The notes beneath the pieces were generated by a model that saw nothing but the letters and a program-made list of their open reading frames with translations, made no database searches and had not been told where the DNA came from. This document shows, piece by piece, positions 17,861 through 62,820 of a stretch of 64,000 nucleotides of DNA (position 1 is its first letter; the number at the start of each line of letters is the position of its first letter). The stretch covers positions 256,001 through 320,000 of the forward strand of contig CAXXVO010000008.1 in assembly GCA_963422645.2 (NCBI GenBank), in the 5' to 3' direction. The position numbers were made by a program, and so were the translations under genes. This DNA is from Alphaproteobacteria bacterium (lineage in GTDB: Bacteria > Pseudomonadota > Alphaproteobacteria > UBA828).

Positions 17861-17976
17861 CGGCCCATGCACAGGCCGGTTTTTCCAGCCCGGTTCAGCC
17901 CCGAAAACCAGCCGATTTTCCAGGCCATTCGCAAAGACTTCCGGCCGCGATTCGCAAAGACTTCCGGCCGGCTACA
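17861..17976 (-). mobile_element. Tn7-like transposon end, copy 2
   Basis: Terminal ...CCGGCTACA with two ATTCGCAAAGACTT repeats; abuts a 5'-truncated IS1595 transposase. Confidence 0.7.
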
Positions 17977-28408: not shown

Positions 28409-31044
28409 GTGACGAAATCGAAGCCGGTGATCAAGAGCGGCGCAAGCCTCTGTCGTTGAAGCGGCCGGGGCGGCTCGAGCTCAAGGAGACGGTCGATGCC
28501 GGCCAGGTTCGGCAGAGCTTCTCGCATGGCCGCAGCCGAGCCGTCGCGGTCGAGGTTCGCAAGAAGCGGACTCTGAAGCGAAGCCCCGGCGCGGAAGCAG
28601 TAGCGGCGCCCAAGGCGAAGGCGCCAGCGCCTAAGGTGCCGCCACCCGAGCCTGTCGCTGAGCAGGCGCCACCGCCTCAGGAGGACGTGCATCAGACCTC
28701 CAGGGCTCCACGCTCGCGGGTCGTCCTCCGCACACTGACGACTGACGAGAAGGCTGCGCGTGCGCGTGCCGTCGAGGACGCGGTGCGCGCCGAGCGTCAG
28801 GAGCGGGCGCGGGCGCAGGAGGAATCTCGCCGCCGCGCTGTGGAGGAGGAGCGCCAGGCTGCCGAACACGCCCAAGCCGAGCGTCGGAAGAGCGAGGAGG
28901 ACGCCCGCCGCAAGGCCGATGAAGATGCGCGCAAGCGGGCGGAGGAGGATGCCGCACGCAGGCTTCCCCAGCCGGAGGAACCCAAGCCGGAAGAAGCCGC
29001 CGCTCCGGAGGCGGCGAGTGCGGCGCGACCCAAACCCGCCGCCGCCCCGGCGGAGGAGGAACGCGGCAGGCCTCGCCGCCGCGGCGAGCAGCGCCGCCCG
29101 GCGAGCCCCTCGCGGCGCGACCAGCCGCGCCGGCGCGGCGGCAAGATCACGCTTTCGGAAGCCCTCGACGGCACCGTCGGCGAGCAGCGCGGGCGCAGCC
29201 TCGCGTCGCTGCGTCGTCAGCGCGAGCGCGAGAAGCGCCTTGCGCGGGAGGCGATGCGCGCGGACGAGCTCAAGCCGGTGGTGCGCGAGGTCGTGGTTCC
29301 AGAGGCGATCACGGTGCAGGAGCTCGCGAGCCGCATGGCCGTGCGCGGCGCCGAGGTCGTGAAGCGTCTGATGGAGATGGGCACGGTCGTCACCATCACC
29401 CAGTCGATCGATGCCGACACGGCGCAGCTCGTGGTCGAGGAGTTCGGCCACAAGGTGAGGCGCGTCAGCGAGGCAGATGTCGAAATCGGGCTCAAGGGCG
29501 AGGACGACACCGCCGAGGCTCTGCTTACCCGCTCGCCCGTGGTTACGGTCATGGGCCATGTCGATCACGGCAAGACCTCGCTGCTCGATGCCATCCGCTC
29601 CAGCGATGTGGTGTCCGGCGAGGCAGGTAGCATCACCCAGCACATCGGCGCCTACCAGGTAGAGACGCCCAGGGGTTCCCGCATCACCTTCATCGACACG
29701 CCCGGCCACGCTGCCTTCACCGAGATGCGTGCGCGGGGTGCGAGCGTGACCGATATCGTCGTTCTCGTGGTCGCAGCGGACGATGGCGTCATGCCCCAGA
29801 CTGCCGAGGCGATCAATCATGCGCGCGCAGCAGGCGTCCCGATCCTGATCGCCATCAACAAGATGGACCGGCCGGACGCCGATCCCAACCGGGTGCGCCA
29901 GGACCTGCTCCAGCACGAGCTCGTGACCGAGGAGATGGGTGGCGACGTGCTCGCGGTCGAGATTTCAGCAATCAAGAAGCAGAATCTCGACCGGCTGGAA
30001 GAGGCGATCTTGCTGCAGGCGGAGCTCTTGGAGCTCACCGCCAACCCCGAGCGCGCCGCTGAGGGTATCGTGATCGAGGCCAAGGTCGATCGCGGGCGCG
30101 GTGCGGTGGCTACCGTTCTGGTCCAGCGCGGTACGCTCCACGTCGGCGATATCGTGGTCGCCGGCGCGCAGTGGGGCCGGGTGCGGGCGATGTACGACGA
30201 CCGCGGCGACGGCGCCAAATCGGCTGGGCCGGCAGTGCCGGTCGAGATTCTCGGGCTCAGCGGCGCGCCCTTGGCGGGCGATGAGGTCGTGGTGGTCGAC
30301 AACGAACGCCGCGCACGGGAAGTTTCCGAGTTCCGCCAGGCACGCGCCAGGGAGAAGGAGGTCGCGCGCGGCGCGCCGCTCAACCTGGAGCAGCTCTTCT
30401 CCGAGATCAAAGAGAGGGAAGACAAGAGCGAGCTTCCGCTCGTCATCAAGGCCGACGTCCAGGGCTCGGTGGAGGCGCTGGTCGGCGCGCTCGGCAGGCT
30501 TGGCACGGACGAAGTGGCGGTGCGCGTGCTCCATTCGGGCGTCGGCGGCATTATCGAATCGGATGTGACACTCGCTGCCGCGTCGGACGCGACCATCATT
30601 GGCTTCAATGTGCGCGCCAACGCTCAGGCGCGCGAGCTCGCGGCGCGCTGCGCCATCGAGCTTCGCTATCACGCCGTCATCTATGACGTCGTCGACCAAG
30701 TCAGGGCCAATCTCGAAGGTATGCTGCGCCCGGAGGCGCGCGAGCGGACTATGGGCAACGCCCAGATCCTCCAGGTGTTCGAAGTGGGCCGCGTCGGCAG
30801 GGTCGCGGGCTGCCGGGTCACCAACGGCCTCGTGCGCCGGGGTTCTAAGGCGCGGCTGCTGCGCGCCGATGTCGTCATCCACGACGGCTCGCTCAAGACG
30901 CTTCGTCGCTTCAAGGACGACGTGCGCGAGGTGAAGGAAGGGTACGAGTGCGGCATGTCTTTCGAGAACCACTCCGATCTGCGCGAGGGCGACGTCATCG
31001 AGCTCTATGAGATTGAGGAGATCGCTCGTACGCTCGACGCGTAG
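28405..31044 (+). CDS. infB: translation initiation factor IF-2
   Basis: [25 protein letters not shown]. Confidence 0.98.
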
Positions 31045-31065
31045 CGCGCGCCCGCCTGACGGTCG

Positions 31066-31449
31066 ATGACGAGACGGAGTGGCCGCGCCGGCGCGCCGAG
31101 CCAGCGGCAACGGCGGGTTGGCGAACTCATCAGGGGAGCGCTGTCAGAGGCGCTCGCCCGCGGCGAGTTTCGGGATCCCGTCCTGAGCGATGTGCGTTTC
31201 ACCGTGACGGAGGTTCGGCCGGCGCCGGACCTGCGCTCCGCCAAGGTCTATGTGATGCCCCTCGGCGGTGAGCGGGAGGCCGAGGCGCTCGACGCCCTGC
31301 AGCGCGCCGCCGGCTACCTGCGCGGCGAGGTGAACCGCCGAGTCCAGCTCAAGTTCTCACCGTCGCTAAGCTTTGAAATCGACCGCAGCTTCGAGGACGT
31401 GGAGCGAATCGAGAGACTGCTCGATGTGGGCGGCGGCTCCGATGAGTGA
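31066..31449 (+). CDS. rbfA: ribosome-binding factor A
   Basis: [24 protein letters not shown]. Confidence 0.95.
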
Positions 31450-32338
31450 CGACACGCCCGCGCGCGGCCCCCACGGCTGGCTGGTGGTGGACAAGCCGCG
31501 CGGGATCACCTCTGCGGCCACCGTGGCGCGGATCAAGTCCTTGGTCGGGAGCGGCTCGAAGGTGGGGCACGCCGGCACGCTCGACCCGATGGCCACGGGC
31601 GTGCTGCCGGTGGCGATCGGCGAGGCCACCAAGACGGTCTCGTTCATGATGGATGCGCCCAAGCGCTACCGCTTCGGCGTGCGCTGGGGCGAGCAGCGCG
31701 ATACCGACGACGCCGAGGGCTCGGTGATCGAGACGAGCGACCAGCGCCCGTCCGAATCCGATACCGAGAACGTGCTCCCTGCCTTCGTCGGCCCCATCGA
31801 GCAGGTGCCGCCGGCGTTCTCCGCCCTCAAGGTCGGCGGCGAGCGTGCCTATGCGCTCGCACGCCAAGGTCGGCCACCGCAGCTTGCGCCGCGCACCGTC
31901 TATATCAAGAGCCTGACGCTAACTGAGGCCAACGACGAGGGCGCCGTCTTCGTTGTCGAGTGCGGCAAAGGGACCTACGTTCGGGCGCTGGCCCGCGACA
32001 TCGCGCGCGCCGCGGGAACGGTCGGCTACGTGAGCTGGCTGCATCGCGCCGCGGTCGGGCTGTTCACCGACGACGATGCGAATCCGCTGGATAAACTGGT
32101 CGCGCTCGGGCATAGTCTGGCCCTCGCCGAACGCCTGCTACCGGTCGATGCAGTGCTGGCCGACATCCCGGCTCTGCCGCTGACCGCTCGCGAGGCAGAT
32201 CGTCTGCGCCACGGCCAGCCCGTGCCCGCGCCCGGCGCCGCACCCGGAAGGGTCCGTGCCGTTGCCGGGTCACGACTCGTGGCGCTGGCCGAAGTCGGCG
32301 CGGGCCGGGCCCGCCCGTTGCGGGTCTTCAACATGTGA
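31442..32338 (+). CDS. truB: tRNA pseudouridine(55) synthase
   Basis: [27 protein letters not shown]. Confidence 0.97.
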
Positions 32339-32354
32339 CAAGCGGAGTAGCCAG

Positions 32355-32624
32355 ATGTCGATCACCGCGGTGCGGAAGACCGAGCTGATATCGGAGTACG
32401 CAACCAAGACCCACGATACCGGCTCGCCGGAGGTCCAGGTCGCGATCCTGACTGAGCGGATCAACAACCTGACCGAGCACTTTCGGAGCCACAAGAAAGA
32501 TCTCCATTCGAGGCAGGGCCTCCTGAAGATGGTCAGCCGCAGGCGCCGCCTGCTCGACTATCTGAAGCGCAACGATCAGGAGCGCTACACCACCGTGATT
32601 CAGCGGTTGGGTTTGCGCAAATAG
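32355..32624 (+). CDS. rpsO: 30S ribosomal protein S15
   Basis: [23 protein letters not shown]. Confidence 0.98.
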
Positions 32625-32770
32625 CATTGGCAATCGCGTGGTCCGCCGGGATGCGGCACGCGGGTCAAGAGGGCACGGCGGGAGGCGCGGCATGGGCCGC
32701 CGCCACCGCCGTTGCGCCTGTGTAGGGGCGAGCCGAATGGGTGGCTCGCCATCGGAACGAAGGAAACAGC

Positions 32771-34897
32771 ATGTTCGATATCACACGTCGTGAGGTTATG
32801 TGGGGTGGGCGCAAGCTCGTCCTCGAAACCGGGCGCATCGCCCGCCAGGCGGATGGCGCCGTCCTCGCGAGCTACGGCGAAACGGTGGTGCTCTGCACCG
32901 TCGTCGGCCAACGTACAGCGAGGGAAGGGCAAGATTTCTTCCCGCTGACCGTCAACTACGAGGAAAAAGCATCCGCCGCCGGCAAGATTCCGGGCGGCTT
33001 CTTCAAGCGCGAGGGGCGCCCGAGCGAGAAGGAGACCCTGGTCTCCCGTCTCATCGACCGGCCGCTTCGGCCCCTCTTCGTCAAGTCGTTTCGCAACGAG
33101 ACCCAGGTCATCTGCACGGTGCTCTCGCACGACCTGATCAACGATTCCGACATCGTGGCCATGGTCGGCGCGTCGGCCGCGCTCACGATCTCGGGTCTCC
33201 CCTTCATGGGGCCGATCGGGGGGTGCCGGGTCGGCTTCGCGGACGGCGGCTATGTTCTGAACCCGACCTACGAGCAGCGCGCGGCCTCCGACCTCGATCT
33301 GGTCATGGCCGGCACTCAGGAGGGTGTGCTCATGGTCGAATCGGAGGCGTCCGAGCTCGCCGAGGATCAGATGCTGGGCGCAGTCACGTTCGGTCACCAG
33401 GCGATCACGCCTGTGATCGACGCGATCATCAGCCTCGCCGAGGCGTGCGCGAAGGAGCCCTGGGAGCTGCCCAAGGAAGAGGTGGACACGGCGCTGGTCG
33501 AGCGGATCCGCGCGAGCGCCGAGGCCCAGCTCCGCGCAGCCTACGCCATCGCCGGCAAGACCGAGCGGTTGGAGAAGGCGGCGGCGGCCAAGGCCGACAC
33601 CGCGGCGCAGTTCCGCGAGGACGGCGGCGCCGCCGGCATTCTCGACGGCACGCTGAGAGGGCTCGAGAAGGAGATCGTGCGCGGCCAGATTCTCGACAGC
33701 GGCGTGCGCATCGACGGCCGCACGACCAGCGATGTTCGCGCCATCGAGTGCGAAGTGGGCGTGCTGCCGCGCAGCCACGGCTCCGCGCTCTTCACGCGCG
33801 GCGAGACCCAGGCGCTGGCCACAGCGACCCTCGGCACCGGCCAGGACGAGCAGATCATGGACATGCTCGAGGGCGAGTATCGCGAGCGCTTCATGCTGCA
33901 CTACAACTTCCCGCCCTATTCGGTGGGCGAGGCGCGCTTCCTGCGTGGCCCCGGCCGGCGCGAGATCGGCCACGGCAAGCTCGCGTGGCGGGCGCTTCAT
34001 CCGCTCATGCCCGATGCCGAGGCGTTCCCCTACACCATCCGCGTGGTCTCGGAGATCACGGAGTCCAACGGCTCGTCGTCGATGGCGACGGTCTGCGGGG
34101 CCTCGCTCTCGCTGATGGATGCGGGCGTTCCCCTGACCCGGCCGGTCGCCGGTATCGCCATGGGGTTGATCAAGGACGAAGAACGCTTCGCCGTGCTCTC
34201 CGACATCCTCGGCGACGAGGATCACCTCGGAGACATGGACTTCAAGGTCGCGGGCACGGAGCAGGGCATCACTTCCCTGCAGATGGACATCAAGATCACC
34301 AGCATTACCGAGGAGATCATGCGCACCGCGCTCGCCCAGGCGCGCGATGGCCGGCTGCACATCCTCGGCGAGATGGCGAAGGCGCTTACGCGCGCGCGCG
34401 ACAGCGTGAGCGACAATGCCCCCCGCATCACCACCTTCTCGATCCCGAAGGACCGCATCCGCGAGATCATCGGCCCCGGCGGCAAGGTCATTCGCGAGAT
34501 TTGCGAAACCACGGGGACCAAGATCGACATCGAGGACGACGGCACCATCAAGGTGGCAGCGGTCGAGGCCGAGGCGGCCGAGGCAGCGATCAACATGATC
34601 CGCGACATCGTGGCCGAGCCCGAGGTCGGCGTGATCTACGACGGCAAGGTGGTCAAGATCGTCGACTTCGGCGCCTTCGTGAACTTCATCGGCAAGCGCG
34701 ACGGCCTGGTCCATATCAGCGAGATCGCGCCGCGCCGGATCAAGAGCGTGAGCGATGTGCTGAGCGAAGGTGATAATGTCAAAGTGAAGGTGCTCGGCAT
34801 CGACGACCGCGGTAAGGTCAAGCTGAGCATGAGGGCCGTGAATCAGGAGAGTGGAGAGGACCTGAGCGCGGCCGAGGAGACGGCGCAGGCCGGGTAG
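32771..34897 (+). CDS. pnp: polynucleotide phosphorylase
   Basis: [26 protein letters not shown] and S1 domains. Confidence 0.98.
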
Positions 34898-36464: not shown

Positions 36465-37240
36465 TCACCGCTCCTTCACATAGGGAACGCCGCTCGCCTT
36501 GCCTTGGGCGGCACCGCCTTGCCCACGAAGCCTGCGAGCAGCAGCACGGTTAGCAGGTAGGGCAGCGCCTGGATTGCTTGCACGGGGATCACGCCGACGC
36601 CGGGGATATCCACGCCTTGCAGCCTGGCCTGCACGGCATCGGCGAAGGCGAAGAGGAAGCAGGCGAAGAGGGTCGGCACCGGGCGCCACTTGCCGAAGAT
36701 GAGCGCGGCGAGGGCGAGGTAGCCCATTCCTGCGCTCATGTCGCGCACGAAGAGCGCGTTCTGGGCGATCGAGAGCGACGTGCCGGCAACGCCGCAGAGG
36801 ATGCCGCAGACGATCATCGCCCGGTAGCGCATGCCGGCGACCGAGATGCCCGCCGTGTCCACCGCCTCCGGCGCCTCGCCGACCGCGCGAAGCCTCAGCC
36901 CGAAGCGGGTCTTGTAGATGAACCACGCCGCGAGCGGGACCATGCCGAGCGCGATATAGACGATCAGATTATGGCCGCTCGCCATCTCCGAATAGATCTG
37001 GCCGATGAAGGGCACGTCGCTCAGCCGGTCGGCGAAGGGGAAGTGAATCGGGCGGAAGCGCGCGCCATCCCCCACCAAGGGCGTATGCCCCCCCTGGCCG
37101 AACCAGGCGAGTGAGAGCACCGGCCCGAGCCCCGCCACCAGGATATTCAGCGCCATGCCCGAGACCACCTGATCGCCCCGGTGGGTGACGCAGGCGAAGG
37201 CGTGAACCATCGCGAGCGCGACCGAGGCGCCCACGCCGGC
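36465..37240 (-). pseudogene. nucleoside/sugar ABC permease, 5'-truncated and frameshifted
   Basis: GDQVVSGMALN, GLRLRAVGE, GYLALAALIFGKW; cut by a transposon end at 37241; GCCTT duplication at 36496-36505 shifts off KASGVPYVKER. Confidence 0.85.
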
Positions 37241-37984
37241 TGTAGCCGGCCGGAAGTCTTTGCGAATCGCGGCCGGAAGTCTTTGCGAATGGCCTGGAAA
37301 ATCGGCTGGTTTTCGGGGCTGAACCGGGCTGGAAAAACCGGCCTGTGCATGGGCCATGAAGGAGCGCTGCGCGGGGGGTTCAGGGCCCGTGCACGGGCGG
37401 TGCGTGGGGGTTTCAGGCGCGGTCGGGACCGGGGCGGGCGCCGGGGCGGCACGGGCGTTCGAGTTCGGCCTTCCACCATTCGGGGTCTTCGACGGCGCGT
37501 TCTGCGGCGTCGTATCCGTCGTGACCGGTCCATCTTCCGGGGTCGGCGTCGGCGTACCACCGGCCTGCGCCGCGGTGTCGCTCGAGGGCGTCGTCGATGC
37601 GGGCGACCTGGTCCGCCGGGCGTCCCCGGCAGAAGCGCTCGAAGAAGGCGTTGAGGCGGCATCGGGGGCAGCGTCCGCAGGGCTCTGCCGCAACGGTGCA
37701 TCGCCAGGTGAGCGCCTCCAGCCCGGGCGGGAGCAGGGCCTGGAGCATGAAGCGCCCGGCGACGGGTCCGAAGGGGGCGTCCCGCGACGGCGGCCACTGC
37801 GCGCCGTCCTCCCAGCCGGGGAAGAAGGGGAGTTCCGTGGGGACGGCGGTGCGCGCGCGGTAGGCCGGATGCCAGTACATGCGGTGCATGTCGTCGGCGG
37901 TGTCCCACGAGGTGATGCCGGGCATCACCCGGTCGGCGCGGTGGCGCTCGGCCTCGTCGGCGTGGGTTGCGTACCGGTCGATGC
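37241..37984 (+). mobile_element. Tn7-like transposon end, copy 3, with the 3' part of the QueC-like gene
   Basis: Inverted near-identical copy of ~17233-17976. Confidence 0.75.
37413..37984 (-). pseudogene. QueC-like gene, 5'-truncated second copy
   Basis: IDRYATHAD...CGRCPRC...PDRA nearly identical to 16920-17804; PP-loop half missing. Confidence 0.8.
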
Positions 37985-39357: not shown

Positions 39358-40008
39358 GTGCGGGCGTTCCTGGATTACCCGCGCCCGCAAGCGCGACATC
39401 GACCGGGCGGAACTGCGCGGCATCTGGGCGGCGAGAGTGCTCTCGACCTGGCCGGCTACACGCATTATCTGAGCCTCGGAGGCAAGCCGCGCGTCCACTT
39501 CTACGGCGAAGTGCCGTCCTGGCTGAAACGGCTGCCGATGCAGACCCACGTCGTCGTGCACCGGCGCCCGCTTTTTGGCGACGACTCGACCGGCATCGGA
39601 GAGGTCGGTCTCGGGGCCGGGGCCGGCGGGCCGGCGGTCGATGTGTGGCGCTGGCCCATCGAGGCGTCGTCGCCGGAACGTGCCATCCTCGAGGCGCTCG
39701 ACGAGTTGCCGCGCCATGCCAACTTCGAAAACCTGGACAAGGTCTTCGAGGGGCTGGTGTCGCGGCGGCCGAGGCAGCTCGTGGCGCTGCTGGCAGCCTG
39801 CCGCAGCGTGAAGGTGCGCAGGCTGTTCTGCGTCTTCGCGGACCGGCACCGGCATGGCTGGCGCAGGCACCTGGACACCTCGACGATCGACTTCGGGTCC
39901 GGTCCGCGGGCTCTCGCGGCGGGCGGAAGGCTGCATCCGACGTACCGCATCTATGTGCCGAAGGCGTTGGCGTCGGAGCAAGCCACCGCGCGGTACAGCG
40001 ATGCTTGA
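39358..40008 (+). pseudogene. AbiEi antitoxin (type IV TA), probably N-terminally truncated
   Basis: GGESALDLAGYTHYL, SSPERAILEAL, CRSVKVRRLF; the usual N-terminal domain is absent. Confidence 0.75.
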
Positions 40009-40923
40009 CCGCTATGTCGCCCAAGTCCGCCTGCTGCTGAGCACGCTGCCGGTCATCGCGGGGGAAACCGCGTTCGCGCTCAAGGGCGGCACGGCCATCA
40101 ACCTGTTCTACCGGGACATGCCGCGGCTGTCCGTCGACATCGATCTCACCTGGCTGCCGGTGGGAGACCGCCGGTCGTCGCTCCGGGACATCGACGAAGC
40201 ACTCGACCGCATAGCGGGCATGATCGCCAGCCGCAACAGACGGGTCGCGGCACGCCGCATTGCGGGCGGCGGGTGGCGGCGACACGCGCATCCTGGTGAG
40301 CGACGGCCGGGCGCGCATCAAGATCGAGACCTCCCCGATGATGCGGGGAGCGGTGTATCCGGCGAGGACGATGGACGCTTCGCAGACGGTGACGGAGCGT
40401 TTCGGGTTCGTCGAGATGAACGTGCTGGCCTTTGAGGACCTGTACGCCGGCAAGCTCCATGCGGCGCTCGACCGCCAGCATCCGCGCGACCTGTTCGACG
40501 TGAAGCTCCTGTACGAAAACGAGGGTCTGACCGACGGCCTCTTCCGCGTGTTCATGGTCTATGTCGCGGGCTCCGGCCGCCCGATGCACGAGCTCCTGGC
40601 GTCGGCGGCGCCGCTCAGGGAAGACCTGTATGACGAAGAGTTTGCCGGGATGACCCACGATGCCTTGACCAGGGATGCGCTCGCCGAAACGCGCCGGCGC
40701 CTGTACGCTGTACGCCGACATCAGGTCACGACTGGAGGGCAGGATCGCCGCGTTCCTGCTTTCGCTGCACGACGCCGAGCCCGACTTCGGACTTATCGGT
40801 CTGCCCGAAGCCGCGAAGCTGCCGGCGGTTCGCTGGAAGTTGCTCAATCTGGAGAAGCTCAGGCAGGCCAATCCCCGGAAGCATGACGCGCAGCGGACCG
40901 CGCTCGAAAACCTGTTCCGGTGA
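40001..40923 (+). pseudogene. AbiEii nucleotidyltransferase toxin with two frameshifts
   Basis: FALKGGTAINLF..RLSVDID, GKLHAALDRQHPRDLFD, LPAVRWKLLNL; +1 G near 40271 and CTGTACG duplication at 40701-40714. Confidence 0.88.
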
Positions 40924-41058
40924 CGGTGGGAGCCGAATTCGCGAGTCCCCGCAGGATGATGGCATAGTGTTGATTTCGGTGCTTGGAGCGTTCCTGCGAT
41001 CAGCGTAACGTATCTGAATCATGGTACAATTTCCCGCGTTTCGCCACGAGCAGCTCAA

Positions 41059-41137
41059 TCCGGCCGACAGAGTGGGAGCGGCGCGCAGCGCGATGTGGTG
41101 CATCGGGCAAGCGTCGCGACGCACGCTGTCGGCCGGA
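41059..41137. repeat. long inverted repeat / hairpin
   Basis: TCCGGCCGACAGAGTG ... CACGCTGTCGGCCGGA (15/16 match) with inner stems. Confidence 0.7.
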
Positions 41138-41322
41138 GAGCGCCGCCCTTCGGGTCGCGCCCAGGCGCCCGACCACGGCGTCGCGGGCCTCAACCGTATT
41201 CCCCGATACGCTTTTCGTCCCGCTCCTTGTGGATCGAACGCCTGGGTGCGACGCAGGCCGTGACCGTGGTGAGAAATGCGGGCTAGACGGGAGATCGGCG
41301 GGCGCGGCGGCCCCTCAGCCGG

Positions 41323-41763
41323 CTAAACCGCCGGCGCTGCCCGTGCTGACCGAAGAGGATCGTCACCGGCGGGTTCAGGCCCGCCCGGCCTCGGAGGATC
41401 CCTCGGCGCGGTGCCGTCGCCCTCACCGAGTACGATGGAGACCAGCTGCATCTCGCGGCCGGTCACGACCTCGGGCGTTGCCCGGCCGCAGTCGGGACAG
41501 CGGAAGTTGTAGGGTCCGCTCGGCGTCTTCACACCGTCGCAGACGCGGCAGTACACGGTGAGCGGAAGCTCTTCGATGTCGAGCACCGCTCCCTCGCAGG
41601 TCGTCCCTCGCGAAGCGGACCGAAAGCTCACGTGGAGCGCGCGGGTCAGTGCCGACAGCACGCCGAGCCGCACGTGAATCCGCGTGACCCGGCGCGCGCC
41701 ATGCGCGAGCGCGTAGTCGTCAACCATTTCGATGAGGCTCCGGGCGAGAGCAAGCTCATGCAT
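41323..41763 (-). CDS. hypA: nickel metallochaperone HypA
   Basis: MHELA, CRVC, CPDCG, TGREM. Confidence 0.93.
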
Positions 41764-42664
41764 GAGCAGAGGCGTGACGTGCGGGAGGACTTGGATCTAA
41801 CCCCTTCGCCGTCGCTGCCTCCCGGACCTGGGCGCGAATCCAATCCAGCCATGCCGCCATTCCCTCTCCGCTCCGGGCGGAGAGACGGATCTCGGCGATG
41901 GCCGGGTTCACCCTCCGGGCGTACTCGAGCGCCCGGTCCGGGTCGAAGTCCACGTGCGTCAGGAGATCTGTCTTGCTGAGCAGCATCAAATCGGCCGCTG
42001 CGAACATATCGGGATACTTGATCGGCTTGTCCTCGCCCTCGGTCACCGAAAGGATGACCACCTTGCATGCTTCGCCGAGGTCGAAGGCCGCCGGGCACAC
42101 CAGATTGCCCACGTTCTCGATGAAGACGACGCCGCCCGGAGCGAGCGGCAGGTCATCCAGCGCGTGCCCGACCATGTGCGCATCCAGATGGCAGCCCCGG
42201 CCGGTGTTGATCTGCACCGCCGGCACGGCACACGCTCTGATGCGCTCCGCGTCGTTGCTGGTCTCCTGGTCTCCTTCCACCACCCCGATCGGCAGCGTGC
42301 CCTCTAGTGCCGTGATGGTCTCGACCAGTAGAGTGGTCTTGCCCCCGCCTGGGCTCGACATCAGGTTGAGCGCCAGCACCCCCTGCTCGGAGAGCCGGCG
42401 CCGGTTGGCGGCAGCATCCGCGTCGTTGCGGGAGAGGATGTCCCGCTCGATCTCGACGAGGCGCTCCTGGGAGAATCCCGGTACGGAGAGCCCGGCTTCT
42501 CCCGCCCCGTAATGGTCGTGAGCGTGACCGTGGCGGTGTCCGTCACCGGATCCGTCGTGGGAGTGATGGTGATGGGTGTGGGTGTGATGGTGGCCCGAAC
42601 GCTCACCGTGAGCGTGACCCTGGTCGCCCGCAGTAACATCGCCGCATCCGCATACCGAGCACAT
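41756..42664 (-). CDS. hypB: nickel insertion GTPase HypB
   Basis: MCSVCGC, His-rich linker, [24 protein letters not shown]. Confidence 0.95.
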
Positions 42665-42932
42665 GAGCGCCTCCGCACGAAGGGTCCGTCAGAGTCCTGA
42701 CGGGGGATCGAAGAACTGATGGAGTTGAAGGGGCAGGTTACTTGGCAGGCAATGCGTGAATCAAGCGAACCTCGGTCGGGCTGACGTGGCCGATCACGTG
42801 CGCCGCGGCACGTGTGCACGAGGGGATGGCGTGTGCTATTCAGCCTGGGGCCTCCGTCGGCGGACGGCGGCCTCGAACTGGGTGCCTTGCGTCCCGCCGC
42901 ACTCGCTCTAGTCGCGCAGAGGGCCACCATTC

Positions 42933-44000
42933 ATGACCGAATCCCGCACCTCCGCTTGGGAGTTCGTGCCCCACCAGCATCGGGGCCCGAAGCAACAGGC
43001 GGGCGACGACGACCATATCCGCTCGCCCAAGCTGCACAACGGCTCCTTCAAGTCGAGCGGTATCGCGACCTTCCTCGGCGCCCCCTACTGTCCGCCGGAC
43101 CGTCATGCGATCCGCGCCATGGGGGCCAAGATCTGCTTCCTCGGCGTTCCCTGGGATCAGGGACAGATGGTGCGCGCCGGCACCTCGCAAGGCCCGGCCG
43201 GCCTGCGCGAAGCCTCGACCCAGTATTTTCCCTACATGTTCGAGTACGACGTCGACCTGGTCAGCGTCTTCCAGCCGGTCGACTGCGGCGACGTTCCGAT
43301 CGTGCCGGGCAACAACGACCTCTCCCACGAGTACATCCACCAGTACATCACCGAATGCCTGGAAGGCGGCGCCAAGGTCATCTTCTGTGGCGGCGACCAC
43401 TCTGCGCCGATCCCGGGCTCCCGTGCGCTTTCGGATTTCCACCGGGAGGGCCGCATCGGCTATCTGCACATCGATTGCCATCTCGACTCCGCGCCGGATT
43501 GGGGCGGCATCGACAACACCAACTGCTCGGGCCCTTCGCGCGCGTTCGATCTGCCCAACTGCGACGGCGCCAACATGGCCCACATGGGCTCGCGCAACGG
43601 GCTCAACCCGAAGGACTGGTACGACTTCTACGTCGACAACGACGTCCGCCTCATCCCCATGATGGAGGTGGTCGAGCGCGGCGTCGAAAGCTGCACCCGG
43701 GAGATTTTCGAGCTCGCCTGGAAGGGCACGGATGCCGTCTATTGCTCCTGGGACACCGACTCGCTGGACGCCGGCTGCATGCCCGGCACGACAGCGCCGG
43801 AATGCTTCGGCATCAAGTCCCGGGAGGCGATTCAGCTCGCCCGTATCGCCGGCACCTACGGCGCCGACGTCCTGGAGATTTCCGAGCTCTGTCCCCAGTT
43901 CGACGTGAGCCAGATGAGCACCAAGCTCGCGTGCTGCATGATCTACCACTACCTCGGCAGCCGGGCCCAAACACTCCGGGAGCAGGGGATCGCGCCATGA
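42933..44000 (+). CDS. ureohydrolase (agmatinase-like), metal ligands intact
   Basis: GVPWD, GGDHS, IDCHLD, WDTDSLD, PGTTAPE. Confidence 0.9.
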   Translation: MTESRTSAWEFVPHQHRGPKQQAGDDDHIRSPKLHNGSFKSSGIATFLGAPYCPPDRHAIRAMGAKICFLGVPWDQGQMVRAGTSQGPAGLREASTQYFPYMFEYDVDLVSVFQPVDCGDVPIVPGNNDLSHEYIHQYITECLEGGAKVIFCGGDHSAPIPGSRALSDFHREGRIGYLHIDCHLDSAPDWGGIDNTNCSGPSRAFDLPNCDGANMAHMGSRNGLNPKDWYDFYVDNDVRLIPMMEVVERGVESCTREIFELAWKGTDAVYCSWDTDSLDAGCMPGTTAPECFGIKSREAIQLARIAGTYGADVLEISELCPQFDVSQMSTKLACCMIYHYLGSRAQTLREQGIAP

Positions 44001-44040
44001 ACGCACCGACCTCGAATCACGAAGAGAAGGGGACAGAGGA

Positions 44041-45075
44041 ATGAACCCCGCCAAGGCCTACGCACACCTCTTCTCGCCTCTGGGAGGCGACGAGGCCGAC
44101 AACTACCGTGCCCCGGGGCAGATCACCTTCCTGCGTTCCGAGCACGTCGCGCTGGAGGCGGAGAAGCTGCGCGAGGTCAGCGCCCGCTATGCATTCGTCG
44201 GCGTGCCCTTCGACGAGGGCAATATCGGCAAGCCCGGCTCCGAAGAGGGACCGCGGGAGTTTCGGCTGGCCTCCCAGGAGTACTTCCCCTACTGGTTCGA
44301 GTATCAGGTCGATCTTAACGGTAGCAGCGTCGACTGCGGCGACGTGCAGATGCCCAAGGTCAACCCGGAGCTCTCGCGCCAACGCATCTACAAGGCGGTG
44401 CGAGAGATCCTCGCCGCGGGCCTGACCCCCATCATCTGCGGCGGCGATCGCTCGCTTTCCATCCCCGCGACCCAGGCGCTTTCGGATCACATCGGCGCCG
44501 ACAAGAAGATGGGCTACCTGCATTTCGGTGCTCACCTGGATCTTGCCGACACCTGGGCCGGCGAGAGGAACCTCAGCACCTGCGCGCTCTCCCGCATCAC
44601 TGAGCTCCCCAACCTGGCGAGCGACAACGTGAGCCACTTCGGCGCGCGCAACTCGCTCAACCCCAAGGACTGGATCGATCTGGCTCGGGAACGCGGGATT
44701 CGCTTCTTCCCCATGTTCGAGATCCTGGAGCGCGGGGTCGACGATGTGGCGGCGGAAGCCATCGGCCGGGCATGGGACGGCACCGACGCCCAATACGTGA
44801 GCTTCAACTTCAATGTGATGGACGCTTCGATGGCGCCGGGCGTGACGGCGGCGGAGCCGGGTGGCATCGAATCGCGAGAGATGATGCGGATCGCCGGCCT
44901 GCTCGGCGCCCGCGGCGGCGTTAGCGTCATCGATATCTCCGAGCTCTGCCCGATCTTCGACGTGAGCGGCACGACCTCCCGGCTCGCGGTCTGTGTCGTG
45001 CTGCGCACCCTGGCGGCGCTCGCCCAGTCGCGCGGCGAGCAGGTCGACCAGGCAATCAAACGGCCCAGCGACTAA
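44041..45075 (+). CDS. ureohydrolase homolog with degenerate metal site
   Basis: Paralog of the upstream gene; GGDRS, FGAHLD, FNFNVMD replace His/Asp ligands. Confidence 0.88.
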   Translation: MNPAKAYAHLFSPLGGDEADNYRAPGQITFLRSEHVALEAEKLREVSARYAFVGVPFDEGNIGKPGSEEGPREFRLASQEYFPYWFEYQVDLNGSSVDCGDVQMPKVNPELSRQRIYKAVREILAAGLTPIICGGDRSLSIPATQALSDHIGADKKMGYLHFGAHLDLADTWAGERNLSTCALSRITELPNLASDNVSHFGARNSLNPKDWIDLARERGIRFFPMFEILERGVDDVAAEAIGRAWDGTDAQYVSFNFNVMDASMAPGVTAAEPGGIESREMMRIAGLLGARGGVSVIDISELCPIFDVSGTTSRLAVCVVLRTLAALAQSRGEQVDQAIKRPSD

Positions 45076-45141
45076 CCCGTCGCATCGGCCGGCTGCAACT
45101 GTCCCGTCCAGGGGGCCCGCTCCAGGCCAAGGGGGACGGAC

Positions 45142-45975
45142 ATGCACATCGCCTGCCTGACCTTCGACTTCGATGCCGTCTCGGGCTTCATCGCCCAGGG
45201 CCTGCGCTCACCGACGCCGATCAGCCGGGGCGAGTTCGGCCTGGTCGGTGCCGATCGCATCCTGGACCTGCTCAGGCAGCACGACATTCCGACGACCTGG
45301 TTCATCCCCGGTCACACCATCGAGACCTATCCTGAGATGTCCGTCCGCATCACGATTGCAGGACATGAGATCGGCCATCACGGCTGGACCCACATGACTC
45401 CCGTCACCATGTCGCGCGACGAGGAGGAGGCGGGGCTCCAGCGCGGCACCGATGCCATCGTCAAGCTGTGCGGGCAGAAACCCAGAGGCTACCGCTCGCC
45501 CGCCTGGGACCTGAGCGAGAACACGATAGACCTGCTGGTCTCGCGCGGCTTCCTCTACGAGAGCAGCATGATGGGGAACGACTACACCCCCTATTTCGCA
45601 CGCTCGGGCGACGTGGTCGCGCTCGAAGAGCCCATGCAACTCGGGCCCGAGACCAGCCTGGTCGAGATGCCCATCAGCTGGACCCTGGACGACTACCCGC
45701 ACTTCGAATACGTGCGCAACGCACGCTACAGCATGCAGGGCCTGATGCCGGCCGGCGGCGTGCTGCAGAACTGGGTGGACGACTTCGACTACATGACCCG
45801 CACGATGGAATGGGGCGTGCTCACCTACACCTGCCATCCCTTCGTGATCGGCCGCGGCCACCGCATGATGATGCTGGAGCGGCTGATCGAGGCGCTCCGG
45901 GGGCTGGGCGCGGTCTTCATGACCATGGAGGACGCCGCGAACGCCTGGCTGGAGCGCACTAGGCCCTCAGGCTGA
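45142..45975 (+). CDS. polysaccharide deacetylase (CE4, PgdA/PuuE-like)
   Basis: LTFDFD, HEIGHHGWTH, GYRSP, HPFVIGR. Confidence 0.88.
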   Translation: MHIACLTFDFDAVSGFIAQGLRSPTPISRGEFGLVGADRILDLLRQHDIPTTWFIPGHTIETYPEMSVRITIAGHEIGHHGWTHMTPVTMSRDEEEAGLQRGTDAIVKLCGQKPRGYRSPAWDLSENTIDLLVSRGFLYESSMMGNDYTPYFARSGDVVALEEPMQLGPETSLVEMPISWTLDDYPHFEYVRNARYSMQGLMPAGGVLQNWVDDFDYMTRTMEWGVLTYTCHPFVIGRGHRMMMLERLIEALRGLGAVFMTMEDAANAWLERTRPSG

Positions 45976-47562
45976 TGCGCGGATCATCTCGGCCACTTTC
46001 TCGCCGATCATGACGCAGGTCGCGAGGGGATTGCCGCTGACGATGGTCGGCATGATCGAGGCGTCCGCGACAAGGAGGTTCTCGAGCCCCCGCACGCGCA
46101 GGCGGTGATCGACCACTGCTAGCTCGTCCCGGCCCATCTTGCAGGTGCCGACCGGGTGGTATCCGCTGAGCGAGTTCTCGCGCAGGTAGGCGCGCCACTC
46201 GTCGTCCGTTTGCACCTCGCTCGAAGGGCGGTAGTCGCCGGCGATGGACTTGGCGAGCGGCTCGGTCTGGAACAGTTTGCGCTGCAGCTTGGCGCCGGCG
46301 AGCAGTAGTTCGAGGTCGCGTTCGTCGGCGAAGAGGTTTGGTTGAATCGTCGAATGCGTGAGCGGGTCCGCGGAACGGAGCCCGACCCGCCCTCGGGAGA
46401 AGGGCCTGAGCAGGTTGATGAGGCCCGTGACCGCCGGCCGGTCGAAGAGGACCGGCCCGTCCGCCGACAAATCGTAGCCGGCGGGCGTGAACATGTATTG
46501 AAGGTCGGAGCGGCCCTCGCTCCCGTCAACTCGGAGGAACGCCGTGACCTGGGCGTGGGGCGAGGCCGCCGGGCCGGAGCCCGCAAGCAGCCATTGTGCG
46601 CCGTAGAGCAGCGCGCCCACGGGGCCCATCAGCGTGTTGTAGGTCGGCACGCTTGCAAAGCAGGTCTGCGCAAGGCCCGGGTGATCGTGCAGGTTCTCGC
46701 CCACGCCCGGCAGATCGTGAACCACCGGAATGTCGAACGTGGGCAAGTGCGCCGCCGGGCCTACGCCCGAGAGCATGAGGAGCTGCGGCGAAGCATACGT
46801 ACCGGCGCACATGATCACCGCGCGCGTCGCCGCCGCCCGCTCGGTGCGCTCCCGGCGCATGTATTCAACCCCGGTCGCGCGCTTGCCGTCGAAGAGCACG
46901 CGCCGGATGTGGGCGTGAGTCAGCACCCGCAGGTTGCGCCGCCGCATCGCCGGCCTGAGGTAGGCGCGCCCCGTGCTGTGCCGCCGCCCCCTGCGCTGGG
47001 TGGCGGGCACGTAGCCGACGCCGGCCTGCGGCGGCGTGTTGATATCGGCCACGCGCTTGATACCCAAGTTGACGCAGGCCTGGAGATAGTCGTCCGAGAG
47101 CGGGTGCAGGCTGCGGATGTTGGAGACCGAGAGCGGGCCGCCCGCTCCGTGATAGGCATCGGCGCCGTTCTCGTTGTTCTCCGAGCGCTTGAAGTAGGGC
47201 AGCACGCTCTCGAAGTCCCAGCCCTCGCACCCGAGCGCGGCCCAGCCGTCGTAGTCCTCCGGCTGACCCCTGACGTACGACATGCCGTTGATCGCGCTGG
47301 TGCCGCCCAGCACCTTGCCGCGCGGCATGTAGTCCTCGCGCCCGCCGCGCGTCGGATCGGGCTCGGCCTTGAAGCCCCAGTCGTAGCGCGGATTGGACAA
47401 TGCCAGGACAAGCCCTGCGGCGGGCATCGAGACGGCGATGCTCCGGTCCGAGCCGCCGGCCTCCAGTACCAGCACGCGGCTGCGCCCGTCCTCCGTCAAG
47501 CGGTTGGCGACGACGCTGCCGGTCGTCCCCGCACCCACGACGATGTAATCCCACGTCACCAT
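45967..47562 (-). CDS. GMC oxidoreductase (choline dehydrogenase-like)
   Basis: DYIVVGAG, RGKVLGGTSAING, VGENLHDH, HPVGTCKMG. Confidence 0.92.
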   Translation of the reverse strand: MVTWDYIVVGAGTTGSVVANRLTEDGRSRVLVLEAGGSDRSIAVSMPAAGLVLALSNPRYDWGFKAEPDPTRGGREDYMPRGKVLGGTSAINGMSYVRGQPEDYDGWAALGCEGWDFESVLPYFKRSENNENGADAYHGAGGPLSVSNIRSLHPLSDDYLQACVNLGIKRVADINTPPQAGVGYVPATQRRGRRHSTGRAYLRPAMRRRNLRVLTHAHIRRVLFDGKRATGVEYMRRERTERAAATRAVIMCAGTYASPQLLMLSGVGPAAHLPTFDIPVVHDLPGVGENLHDHPGLAQTCFASVPTYNTLMGPVGALLYGAQWLLAGSGPAASPHAQVTAFLRVDGSEGRSDLQYMFTPAGYDLSADGPVLFDRPAVTGLINLLRPFSRGRVGLRSADPLTHSTIQPNLFADERDLELLLAGAKLQRKLFQTEPLAKSIAGDYRPSSEVQTDDEWRAYLRENSLSGYHPVGTCKMGRDELAVVDHRLRVRGLENLLVADASIMPTIVSGNPLATCVMIGEKVAEMIRASA

Positions 47563-48236
47563 CGCCTCCCCGCGATCCCGCCCCGCGCCGGATTTGCGCG
47601 CACACCTCCCTGAAAATGGAGACTGCGGGCCCCGGCGTTTGGACATAGGGTCAGACTTCCTGACCTCGTGATGCTGGCTGTTCTGGGCAGCGTGCCGGGA
47701 ACTCCTTGAATTCTGATACATTTCGGTTGTTTCAGGCGGTTTTTCGCTGGGTGTCGCGCCCGAGGTCTGATAGTATAATTTGATACCAATTGCACGGTCT
47801 CAACCATGCCCAGTACCCTCCCAATGTGCCCTCCAGAGGCGGTCTCGATCGGCAACAGCTGCTTCGCCGTCCTGATCTCGGACGACACCTTCACCTACTT
47901 TTCCAACCTCATTCCCTTTGACAGCCACGCCGCCGATGACCGCACGGCCATGCTCTTGCGGATCGGCCGCCTCGCGGCGATCAGCGCGGTCTCGCCGCAG
48001 GAACTGGCTGACGCTTTCGCTGTCTCGCGCGCGACGGTGCAGCGCGCACGACGGCGCTACCTGGCCGAGGGCGAAGCGGGGTTCATGAAGCCCCGGCGCG
48101 GTCGCGGGCCGTCGGTGTGTTGTTAAGCGTGGAAAAGTGACCCCCTATTGGGGGTGATCGGCGTCCAAAATTGACCCCCTTGGATTTGTGTCCATGAACA
48201 CACCTCGTCGTTTGGACGGACGGGGTGGTGGGGGAG

Positions 48237-49751
48237 ATGCTGGTTGTGGAAACGATCGCGAAGATCCGTCGGGATCATCTGGTGAAGGGCGTTCCGATCA
48301 AGAAGCTCGCCCGGGATTTGAGGGTTTCCAAGAACACGATACGCAAGGTGGTGCGGGGCGATGCGACCTCGCACAGCTACGAGCGCAAGATCCAGCCGAT
48401 GCCGAAGCTTGGGCTGTGGGTGGAGGAGCTTGAGCGCCAGCTGAAGGCCAACGAGAAGAAGGCACGCAAGGATCGGCTGTCTCTTCTGCGGATTCATGAA
48501 GACCTTGTGTCGCTGGGCTACAAGGGCGGCTATGACGCGGTTCGCCGCTATGCCAGGGCCTGGCGGCGCCGGTGGCGGCTGTTGTCGCCGGCGCAGGCCT
48601 ATGTGCCGCTGATCTTCGATCCCGGCGAGGCCTACCAGTTCGACTGGAGCCACGAGTACGCGCGTCTGTCGGGCGCGACGACCAGGGTGAAGGCGGCGCA
48701 CATGCGGCTGTGCCACAGCCGGATGTATCTGGTCCAGATCTTTCCCCGCGAGAGCCAGGAGATGGTCTTCGAGGCGCACGAGCGTGCCTTCCGCTTCTTC
48801 GGCGGGGTCTGCCGGCGGGGCATCTACGACAACATGAAGACGGCGGTGAGCACGATCTTCGTGGGCAAGAAGCGGGACTACAACCGCCGCTTCCAGGAGC
48901 TGTGCTCGCACCATCTGGTGGAGCCTGTGGCGTGCACGCCAGGGGCTGGCTGGGAGAAGGGGCAGGTCGAGAAGCAGGTGGGTGACCTTCGCGGCCGCCT
49001 GTTCGTGCCCATCCCGCGGGGCCGCTCCTACGCCGAGATCAACGAGTGGCTGATGGATCGGTGCATCGAGGACGCCAAGAAGCATCCGCATCCGACAATC
49101 CCGGGCAAGACGGTGTGGCAGGTGTTCGAGGAGGAGCAGCCCTTCCTGATGGCGTATCGCGGCCCCTTCGACGGCTTCCATGCCAGCGAGGTGTCGGTCT
49201 CGAAGACCTGTCTGGTGCGCTTCGACAACAACCAGTACAGCGTCGCGGCCCGCGCCGTCGGCCGGCCGGTGGACGTGCGGGCCTATGCCGATCGGATCGT
49301 CATCCGCCAGGACGGCGAGACCGTTGCCGAGCACCCCCGCAGCTTCGGGCGCGGCCGGTTCGTCTACGATCCGTGGCATTACGTGCCGATCCTGACGCGG
49401 AAGCCCGGCGCGCTACGCAATGGCGCGCCCTTCAAGGACTGGCAGTTGCCCAACGCGCTCGGCCGCCTGCGAACCCGGCTCGCGGGCCACGACGACGGCG
49501 ACCGGCAGTTCGTCAAGGTGCTCGCGGCGGTGCTGGAGGACGGACTGGAGGCGGTTGAGGCGGCCTGTGCCGAGACGCTCGACTGCGGTGCCTGCAGCGC
49601 CGACGTGGTGCTCAACATCCTCGCCCGGCAGCGCCAGCCGGCACCGCCGGCAATCATCCCGACGCCCGAGGGCCTGCAGCTTCGCCACAAGCCGGTAGCC
49701 GACTGTCAGCGCTACGACAGCCTGAGGGAGGCCGGTCATGGAGCGTCATGA
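48237..49751 (+). CDS. istA: IS21 transposase IstA
   Basis: [32 protein letters not shown]. Confidence 0.95.
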
Positions 49752-50466
49752 TGTGCTGGAGATGATGACCCAGCTGAAGCTCGCAGGTATGCGCGCCGCT
49801 TACGACGACATCCTTGCCGACGGGCTCAAGCGCCGCCATCCGGTGCAACAGATCATCGGTACGCTGCTGCAGGTCGAGATCGCCGACAAGAGGGCCCGCT
49901 CGATCAAGTACCAGATGGCCTCCGCCAAGCTGCCGACGGTCAAGGAGCTGGCCGACTTCGACTTCGCCGCCTCGCCGGTCAACGAGCCCCTGATCCAGGA
50001 GCTCGCCGGCGGCGGCTTCCTCGAGGGCAAACGCAACATCGTGCTGGTCGGCGGCACCGGTACCGGCAAGACCCATCTCGCCGTCGCCATCGCGCGGTCC
50101 TGCATCCGCAAGGGCGCGCGCGGCCGGTGCTACAACGTCGTCGACCTGGTCAACCTCCTCGAGGCCGAGCTTCGCGCCGGACGCCAGGGCCGCACTGCAG
50201 ACCAGCTCGTCCGCCGCGACTTCGTCATCCTCGACGAGCTCGGCTACCTGCCCTTCGCCCAGGCCGGTGGGCAGCTGCTCTTCCATCTGATGAGCCGGCT
50301 CTACGAGCGCACCTCGATCGTCATCACCACAAACCTCGCCTTCGGCGAATGGCCATCCGTCTTCGGCGACCCCAAGATGACCACAGCGCTGCTCGATCGC
50401 CTCACCCATCATTGCGAGATCATCGAGACCGGCAACGAGAGCTGGCGCTTCAAGAACCGCTCCTGA
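49738..50466 (+). CDS. istB: IS21 AAA+ helper IstB
   Basis: [26 protein letters not shown]. Confidence 0.96.
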
Positions 50467-50838
50467 CCCGCCGCCGGCCTCCCTTGCGGCCCGGTTGCCC
50501 CGGTGGGCCAACAGGGACCCCCCACGCGGCTTCGCTCCGCGTAGCGCAGGGCGCCACACGAAGCCGCGCGGGTCCCCCCTATTGGCTACCGGGACAACCT
50601 CCGCCGTGCCACTCAGGGGGGTCAATTTTGCACGCCGATCGGGGGTCAGTATTGAAAGCCGATTGACACATAGTCTACGACATCGACGGGGCCTCGGAAT
50701 CCGCGCGGCTCGTGTCACCTAAAATCAGCAGAGGTCAGGAAGTCTGAGGGTACTCCGGTTGCGCCGCTCCACGCAGGCGAATCCGGCGATCGCGTCCGGC
50801 GGGGGCAGGCAGGGACATCGGGATGGCAGGGAACCGGT

Positions 50839-60135: not shown

Positions 60136-60136
60136 C

Positions 60137-60271
60137 CTACTCGCCCCCCATCCTGACAATGGTGATCAGGTAGAACAGGATCGCGAGCGCAAGCAGCGCG
60201 CCACCGAGGGCGAAGTTGCGAATCTTGCGCCGGCGCTCGCTGTCCCGGTCTTTCACGACACCATCCCTCAT
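60137..60271 (-). CDS. small membrane protein of the cox operon (CoxF-like)
   Basis: [32 protein letters not shown]; ATGA overlap with ctaB; not in the ORF track. Confidence 0.7.
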
Positions 60272-61185: not shown

Positions 61186-61206
61186 CGTGCTAGCCCCCGC
61201 TCCGGC

Positions 61207-62805: not shown

Positions 62806-62820
62806 GGCCTCTCTCCTTCC

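Follow-up and report, generated by a model that had tools for sequence, protein, structure and literature searches.

The nearest described relatives of the locus treated here are two nickel hydrolases built from unlike subunits. Metformin hydrolase, called MefH or MfmAB, is an alpha2beta4 complex that depends on nickel and needs co-expression of HypA and HypB; its alpha subunit expressed alone was inactive and mostly insoluble, and the alpha subunit of its commoner relative, DmgH, was likewise inactive alone, as reported by Sinn et al. (2024, PMC11399263). DmgH converts 1,1-dimethylguanidine to urea and dimethylamine and did not hydrolyse metformin in the assays described there (PMC11399263, Nat Commun 15:8045). 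The activity was demonstrated for the enzyme of Aminobacter niigataensis DSM 7050 and for the operon of Hyphomicrobium sp. isolate SMAG_U6089, and specificity was attributed to alpha positions 184 and 288-290, which are S and S-T-S in the Aminobacter DmgH and C and N-S-A in MefH; methylguanidine was left untouched by the family enzymes that the paper lists as assayed (PMC11399263). Known metformin hydrolases are more than 97% identical among themselves according to Tassoulas et al. (2024, PMC10927577). The family as a whole was put at a "few dozen" sequences in 2024, and our full-text literature search, with supplements outside its scope, found no characterised dimethylguanidine hydrolase beyond the two of Sinn et al. 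Here we analyse a stretch of 64,000 nucleotides (the window) from contig CAXXVO010000008.1 of an alphaproteobacterial genome (GCA_963422645.2), in which a hypBA pair stands next to two ureohydrolase genes, called alpha and beta below. The pair probably encodes a Ni-dependent alpha2beta4 dimethylguanidine hydrolase (DmgH) that is loaded by HypAB and releases urea and dimethylamine.

On the minus strand, hypA (41323-41763; 146 aa; Pfam HypA, E 3.8e-25 over residues 1-110) and hypB (41756-42664; 302 aa; TIGR00073 hypB, 278.9 bits against a cut-off of 121.2, with a HypB_prefix_1 domain) overlap by 8 bp. Across a divergent intergenic region of 268 bp (42665-42932) lie alpha (42933-44000, plus strand, 355 aa), the gene for the catalytic DmgH/MfmA-type subunit, and, 40 bp after its stop codon, beta (44041-45075, plus strand, 344 aa), the gene for the metal-free DmgH/MfmB-type partner; both match Pfam Arginase. 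All four open reading frames (ORFs) are full length. The initial annotation had described hypBA as divergent from two tandem ureohydrolase genes, and the ORFs were found at the positions it gave. The range it assigned to the system, 41323-45975, contains five genes by the ORF list and family scans, however, since it also spans a gene of the CE4 'polysaccharide deacetylase' family (45142-45975, plus strand, 277 aa), which was not mentioned. This fifth gene is a flanking gene of the genus and lies outside the hydrolase cassette.

Alpha matches the MfmA chains of three solved structures (PDB 8snf_D, 8ryi_B and 8x3g_A) over its full length with E values near 1e-181 (best 2.7e-181), and residues 1-341 of beta match the MfmB chain 8ryi_C with E 1e-164. 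The next solved relatives, GdmH-type entries, follow only at E 1e-41 to 1e-48, the 'agmatinase 2' structures 9fek and 7esr being at about 1e-41. For comparison with the tested enzymes we used the Hyphomicrobium sp. SMAG_U6089 operon (L046) and the Aminobacter DSM 7050 locus (L053), both from a scan of species-representative genomes, and the mfm cluster of P. mendocina MET-2 (L081), from a plasmid search. Globally, alpha is 74.6% identical to the Hyphomicrobium DmgH, 68.5% to the Aminobacter DmgH and 69.0% to MfmA; the corresponding values for beta are 70.6%, 67.4% and 66.6% (the last to MfmB). The two tested DmgH alphas are 69.2% identical to each other, that is, less alike than the window alpha and its Hyphomicrobium counterpart. 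The full-length matches to MfmA and MfmB, together with the alignment of the sites described below, uphold the earlier view of a heteromeric MfmAB-type ureohydrolase with a catalytic subunit, a metal-less subunit and HypAB. The proposal that this might be a new enzyme has to be given up: the genes are orthologous to the published DmgH and belong to a widespread family, so that the pair reads as a further example of the system described in 2024 rather than as a new enzyme type. Near-identity to a characterised enzyme, which had been allowed for as well, is not what was found, the nearest tested alpha being 74.6% identical.

The metal site was compared with that of MfmA using the residue list and numbering given by Tassoulas et al. 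(2024, PMC10927577). Alpha residues H156, D181, H183, D185, D274 and D276, together with the substrate-binding E318, align with MfmA H159, D184, H186, D188, D277, D279 and E321. N197-C198 (N200-C201 in the numbering of Tassoulas et al.) replaces the proton-shuttle His of arginase, agmatinase and GdmH, and the Asn is invariant in 79 of 79 alpha sequences of the family. This alignment confirms that the first ureohydrolase keeps its six metal ligands and has NC instead of the catalytic His. C182 and T286-T287-A288 occupy the specificity positions, so that sites 184 and 288-290 read C-T-T-A both in the window and in L046, as against C-N-S-A in metformin hydrolase. All nine published pocket and specificity positions (Q81, C184/185, N200, C201, W232, 288-290 and E321) are equal in the window and L046. 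Among the 79 complete alphas, from which the incomplete rows L007, L033 and L060 were left out, the state is CTTA in 41, CTSC in 18, SSTS in 12, ASTS in three, CTTC in three, CTTL in one and CNSA in one. The substrate had at first been thought to be an unknown natural compound; the specificity positions being identical to those of the tested L046 enzyme, the likeliest one would be the already described 1,1-dimethylguanidine, and metformin is probably not a substrate.

Beta has R137, G163, N256 and N258 at four of the ligand sites and retains H165 and D167. These are the four losses (H>R, D>G, D>N, D>N) already noticed in the second ureohydrolase. The genus was compared through 20 other genomes, of which two sister genomes are labelled G005 and G009. 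Against the G005 orthologues, the ratio of nonsynonymous to synonymous substitution rates (dN/dS), which is an average over both lineages, is lowest for alpha (0.08) and beta (0.09), followed by hypB (0.21) and hypA (0.27). With its dN/dS of 0.09, beta is under purifying selection though catalytically dead. It is also retained beside alpha in 76 complete related loci.

HypA has the N-terminal MHE nickel site and a CxxC...CxxC zinc site, and HypB has an N-terminal MCSVCGC (CxxCGC) motif, a His-rich stretch and a GTPase domain. The genome of the window (5.9 Mb in 23 contigs, 99.58% complete) yielded a single HypA match, which is the window hypA, and no match anywhere to the NiFe-hydrogenase large subunit (PF00374). 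No hydrogenase or urease gene is among the 46 window ORFs scanned against Pfam, which bears out the original observation that HypAB stands there without either. Three urease alpha genes, all outside the window, a nickel permease of the NiCoT family and a type III glutamine-synthetase/GmaS-type gene with a score above the curated cut-off are encoded in the genome. In related loci, hypA lies upstream of alpha on the same strand in 72 of 80 cases (at less than 0.5 kb in 71 and at 3.5 kb in L005) and is divergent in none of the 80, whereas the window hypBA is adjacent to alpha-beta on the opposite strand. Since the genome has no NiFe hydrogenase and only one HypA, and since hypA lies upstream of alpha in 72 of 80 loci, the HypAB pair is likely to be dedicated to the hydrolase; the hydrolase itself is presumed to depend on nickel. 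HypA ends in a Pro/Gly/Ala-rich tail of about 33 aa that extends past the 112-position Pfam model (3' end of the gene, 41323-41430). The tail length is kept in G005 and G009, and over all 146 aa HypA is 89% identical to its G005 orthologue.

The mechanism that we propose follows that of the solved relatives. Nickel would enter through the NiCoT-family permease, and HypB, a His-rich GTPase, would act with HypA to load two Ni2+ into alpha. Alpha would fold and work only in complex with metal-free beta, and an alpha2-beta4 hexamer is expected by homology to MfmAB/MefH, the solved complexes being 67-69% identical. A metal-bound hydroxide would then attack the guanidinium carbon of 1,1-dimethylguanidine to give dimethylamine and urea, with Asn197 standing in for the usual proton-shuttle His. 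Urea would be passed on to a urease, of which the genome encodes three at other loci, and the type III glutamine-synthetase/GmaS-type gene would be available for assimilation of methylated amines.

Relatives of the hydrolase are encoded in 98 of 114 candidate stretches of species-representative genomes, and at E <= 1e-30 there are 408 protein clusters, so that the family is far larger than the 2024 estimate. A quick IQ-TREE phylogeny with 79 alpha sequences, and with six betas as the root, places the window alpha in a group of four rows (SH-aLRT support 96), where it is 88-90% identical to three sequences from metagenome-assembled genomes (MAGs) of Gammaproteobacteria/Ectothiorhodospiraceae. 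The group is nested in a core clade of nine rows (support 97). The other clades are that of the tested Hyphomicrobium enzyme (16 rows, support 99), that of the Aminobacter DmgH and MfmA (16 rows, 97) and a fourth clade (21 rows, 100). The four main clades join in one node of 68 rows (SH-aLRT 89). A phylogeny against the Mfm and dimethylguanidine hydrolases had been suggested in the initial annotation as a check: it puts the window within the node that holds both tested DmgH, while the order inside that node is a polytomy. In the fourth clade (21 loci) the specificity sites mostly read C-T-S-C, accompanied by the changes Q81>T and C201>A.

The operon context differs among the clades. In the core clade (Pfam, 8/8 loci) the order is a regulator of Lrp/AsnC type or FIST, an ATP-binding cassette (ABC) importer, hypB-hypA (found by Pfam in 3/8), alpha-beta and urease. 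The importer consists of a permease, an NMT1/THI5-type binding protein and an ATPase, and the urease operon of fused ureAB, ureC, ureG and ureD, sometimes with ureE and ureF. The whole layout is on a single strand in seven of the eight loci; L075, the exception, carries its urease structural genes on the other strand. The clade of the tested Hyphomicrobium enzyme shares this layout: by tblastn with all 81 loci, the binding protein is found in 13 of its 16 loci, ureC within 8 kb in 10 and a type III glutamine-synthetase-like gene also in 10. A basal clade shares it as well. The Aminobacter clade has TetR instead, with a CodB-type permease in 8 of 16 loci and HupE in seven of those eight. The ancestral operon comprised an ABC importer, HypBA, alpha-beta and urease, which argues for a native role in urea release and nitrogen scavenging. 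The presence of urease beside alpha-beta in the relatives fits the urea-releasing chemistry of DmgH rather than the guanylurea-releasing hydrolysis of metformin.

Within the genus, alpha is found in three of the 20 other genomes (97%, 95% and 86% identity); it is also in all five genomes of a neighbouring family. The genome G012 has the canonical co-directional order of permease, binding protein, ATPase, hypB, hypA, alpha and beta. In G005 and G009, read in the orientation of the window, permease, binding protein and ATPase are followed by an inverted hypA and hypB, then by alpha, beta and the deacetylase gene, after which come the GMC gene (minus strand), an AMP-ligase gene, a luciferase-like monooxygenase gene and YmdB. 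The window is 94.4% identical to G005 in DNA over 41283-47651, and the identity resumes from 50747. To the left, synteny with G005 and G009 ends at 41283, 40 bp beyond the hypA stop codon, where the sisters carry the transporter genes. The cassette transporter has no orthologue in the genome of the window, the best matches being paralogues of 50-54% identity on contig C7. In G005 the far side of the transporter is bordered by isochorismatase and EamA genes, which in the genome of the window sit on contig C16. The deacetylase gene is present in 18 of the 20 other genomes. Where alpha-beta is missing, it keeps its GMC partner (9/9 loci), and its other flank consists of the isochorismatase or EamA genes that border the transporter in G005. 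Because the deacetylase/GMC pair occurs without alpha-beta and with the same outer flank genes, the module from transporter to beta is an insertion of about 6.7 kb beside this genus-wide pair. The four-gene cassette was probably acquired horizontally. Inverted repeats that might explain the hypBA inversion were sought; only short imperfect pairs were seen, none convincingly flanking the segment.

To its left, the cassette is flanked by a patchwork. The place of the sisters' transporter is taken by a type IV toxin-antitoxin module (39358-40886), in which AbiEi occupies 39358-40008 and the AbiEii toxin is broken into two frames that overlap (39854-40435 and 40260-40886), the second covering only profile positions 93-219 of 238; the toxin gene is probably a frameshifted pseudogene. 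The flank also has one ORF without a family match, repeat fragments, and an ORF at 36476-37693 with a low-complexity N-terminus that matches BPD_transp_2, an ABC permease family, only at residues 152-359. A repeat at 37241-37984 is 98.9% identical to copies at 16888-17976 of the window and at 577.8-578.6k of contig C9. To the right, the GMC and AMP-ligase genes are parted by an insertion of 3.1 kb (47652-50746), which G005 and G009 lack and which carries an insertion sequence (IS) of the IS21 type (istA 48225-49751, istB 49738-50466). Genome-wide, this IS21 has 66 near-full copies that are at least 99.6% identical to one another, plus 12 partial copies, and the 218-bp end of another repeat occurs 106 times. 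These numbers amount to a massive recent IS expansion. A urease cluster of ureF, fused ureAB and ureC (L091) lies on contig C9 (580268-583630), the same contig as alpha-beta and 280 kb from it; it is 75% and 82% identical to the urease directly after alpha-beta in L002. It has no adjacent ureG or ureD, and IS21, IS4-type and phage-tail genes are nearby. L091 may be the other half of the ancestral operon, now separated from alpha-beta.

Several points weigh against the reading as a dimethylguanidine hydrolase. The importer is gone from the genome and no urease or regulator gene adjoins alpha-beta, so that the pathway may not operate here. Given the polytomy, the bracket of the two tested DmgH enzymes around the window is unproven, though compatible with this reading. 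A quarter of the alpha residues (25%) differ from the nearest tested enzyme, and at 28 positions both tested DmgH alphas agree and the window differs, among them A188S, A193G, N195I, L207F, F273C and S283G in or near active-site loops. Six assemblies have two alpha-beta copies (L004/L059, L006/L026, L008/L076, L002/L079, L027/L036 and L048/L062); the alpha tree assigns the two to different clades or sub-branches, which hints that clades may differ in substrate. Moreover, dimethylguanidine has not been demonstrated as a natural metabolite, according to the discussion in PMC11399263.

Two alternatives take up these points. The first is independent of the substrate question: the genes would be intact and the pathway a stranded remnant after IS-driven loss of the uptake system and of the linkage to urease and regulator, growth on the substrate being perhaps lost. 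We consider this rather unlikely. The synteny break at 41283, beyond which the sisters' ATPase, binding-protein and permease genes have only distant paralogues here, speaks for it, as do the abundance and near-identity of the IS21 copies and the frameshifted AbiEii gene and repeat fragments of the left flank. It has to contend, however, with four full-length ORFs whose dN/dS of 0.08-0.27, averaged over both lineages, is low. Also, another transporter could import the substrate, and a nickel permease and ureases are encoded elsewhere in the genome.

The second alternative keeps the Ni alpha-beta/HypAB architecture and assigns it another small guanidine (methylguanidine or an N-alkyl- or N,N-dialkyl-guanidine) as natural substrate, which we regard as unlikely. 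The doubled alpha-beta copies, perhaps non-redundant, would fit it, as would the 28 differing positions, some of them near the active site. Nevertheless, all nine named pocket and specificity positions equal those of a tested DmgH. The loop from DCHLD to N197, which is GGIDN in the window clade as against AGNAY and AGNLI in the tested enzymes, is another point in its favour, but this loop differs also between those two enzymes, which share dimethylguanidine specificity. A glutamine-synthetase gene resembling type III/gamma-glutamyl-amine ligases recurs in related operons and would fit a primary amine product, and the natural source of dimethylguanidine is not known (as stated in PMC11399263). 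Against this stand the lack of action on methylguanidine among the family enzymes tested in the same work (PMC11399263) and an operon layout common to the clade of the tested Hyphomicrobium enzyme. The DmgH reading remains the one we prefer.

That the pair is a strict metformin hydrolase (MfmAB/MefH), releasing guanylurea and dimethylamine, is very improbable, even though MfmA and MfmB are its best matches among solved structures and position 184 is Cys as in MefH. Its alpha is only 69.0% identical to MfmA, against the figure of more than 97% among known metformin hydrolases (PMC10927577), positions 288-290 are T-T-A rather than N-S-A, and the Hyphomicrobium enzyme with C-T-T-A failed on metformin in the published assay (PMC11399263). 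In addition, the relatives are linked to urease and not to guanylurea hydrolase. The CodB/HupE/TetR context of mfmAB is absent: none of the three gave a tblastn match in the genome, nor was there a match to PF04955. More improbable still is that alpha is an ordinary Mn-dependent, homomeric agmatinase (SpeB) and beta an unrelated decayed duplicate. The agmatinase model is the top-scoring NCBIfam family for alpha, but with a cut-off of 174.3 bits TIGR01230 reaches only 113.1 with alpha and 121.2 with beta. Asn197 stands where the proton-shuttle His should be, beta accompanies alpha in the 76 complete loci and is under purifying selection, and the alpha subunits of MefH and DmgH were inactive alone, that of MefH being mostly insoluble (PMC11399263).

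The hypB-alpha spacer is well conserved with G005 and G009 and presumably holds both promoters, but a consensus scan over 40800-48300 found no sigma-70 match in it. Over the same range, one terminator-like site lies on the minus strand in the alpha/beta junction, and such sites are no more frequent than in shuffled sequences. The spacer also contains an imperfect palindrome (42794-42816), which G005 and G009 do not strictly conserve. At the Rfam gathering score no riboswitch, guanidine riboswitches included, was found in the 64-kb window, where the sole match is one tRNA; this extends to the whole window the earlier statement that the intergenic region has no guanidine riboswitch. In one sponge metatranscriptome library (X20), contigs contain short fragments with about 85-96% likeness to stretches of the hypB, alpha, beta and GMC genes. 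They come from relatives, and the library may contain DNA, so that they show neither transcription of the locus nor its habitat. The X22 runs, which by their label may be RNA from the same organism, have next to nothing at this locus.

The deacetylase gene is convergent with the GMC oxidoreductase gene (45967-47721, minus strand), the ends of the two overlapping by 9 bp. The nearest solved relative of the deacetylase is H. pylori HP0310/PgdA (3qbu, E 2.7e-59) and that of the GMC protein a chloramphenicol-inactivating oxidoreductase (8b7s, E 1.7e-131). Both were considered as members of the pathway and rejected, the pair being genus-wide and present without alpha-beta; it was kept in 11 of 11 loci fetched from other genus genomes. 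In the other 80 alpha-beta loci no orthologous deacetylase or GMC match stands beside alpha-beta; one GMC match of 43% was seen, in L078, and weak deacetylase matches of 30-35% in 10 of the 80. In six of these 10 loci (L015, L016, L021, L022, L024 and L025), which make up all of one marine clade of Arenicellales, Poriferihabitaceae and Acidiferrobacteraceae MAGs, a CE4 homologue of 30-32% identity lies 0.3-1.3 kb after beta on the opposite strand. This linkage may be a coincidence or a real association. As for the wider setting, the housekeeping operon nusA-infB-rbfA-truB-rpsO-pnp (26175-34897) lies upstream of the accessory region and a cytochrome c oxidase cluster (58686-63840) downstream of the cassette. 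Because these two flank the accessory region, the neighbourhood of the cassette is chromosomal, not plasmid-like.

The locus adds one somewhat rearranged member to a family that recently gave rise to metformin hydrolase, and within one genus the module acts as an insertable cassette able to lose parts. A further idea is that the clade of the window evolved for another natural guanidine, or that dimethylguanidine is a genuine natural metabolite that has been overlooked; we hold this to be rather improbable. Relatives in the clade always have an NMT1-type ABC importer and urease and often a GmaS-like ligase, and several genomes have a second alpha-beta pair from another clade. If the idea were true, the cassette would be a portable nitrogen-scavenging unit moving between Alpha- and Gammaproteobacteria, and the binding protein of the linked transporter would be a direct handle on the natural substrate.

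Among known systems, GdmH of Synechocystis (Sll1077; PDB 7esr, 7oi1) is also a Ni-dependent ureohydrolase needing HypAB-type chaperones, as summarised in PMC11399263. It is described, however, as the product of a single gene with no dead partner subunit; it is a distant match and keeps the catalytic His that is Asn in the window. Assignment to GdmH was rejected on the two-gene alpha/beta arrangement and on the match of alpha to 7esr (E 1.6e-40, compared with about 1e-181 for MfmA). Metformin hydrolase (MfmAB, MefH or MetCaCb; PDB 8snf, 8ryi and 8x3g) shares the fold and is the nearest solved homologue, in published accounts an alpha2beta4 Ni enzyme encoded next to hypBA. Its loop N288-S289-A290 is T-T-A in the window and its reported product is guanylurea, not urea; mfmAB has been portrayed as a gene set of recent origin that hardly varies and is carried by transposons and plasmids in wastewater bacteria. 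The Aminobacter DmgH (L053) has a like architecture, with nickel and HypAB reported as required, but unlike the window it reads S-S-T-S at the specificity sites and lies among genes for TetR, a CodB-type permease and HupE. The Hyphomicrobium DmgH (L046) comes closest. The window differs from it in the inverted, divergent hypBA and in having no adjacent ABC transporter, regulator or urease, whereas the L046 operon (Lrp, ABC transporter, hypBA, alpha-beta, urease) has the layout of the window's own relatives. In common the two have alpha followed by beta, a HypAB pair, the six ligands, N200/C201, Q81, W232, E321 and the C-T-T-A signature, and in both the metal site of beta is degenerate in a like manner.

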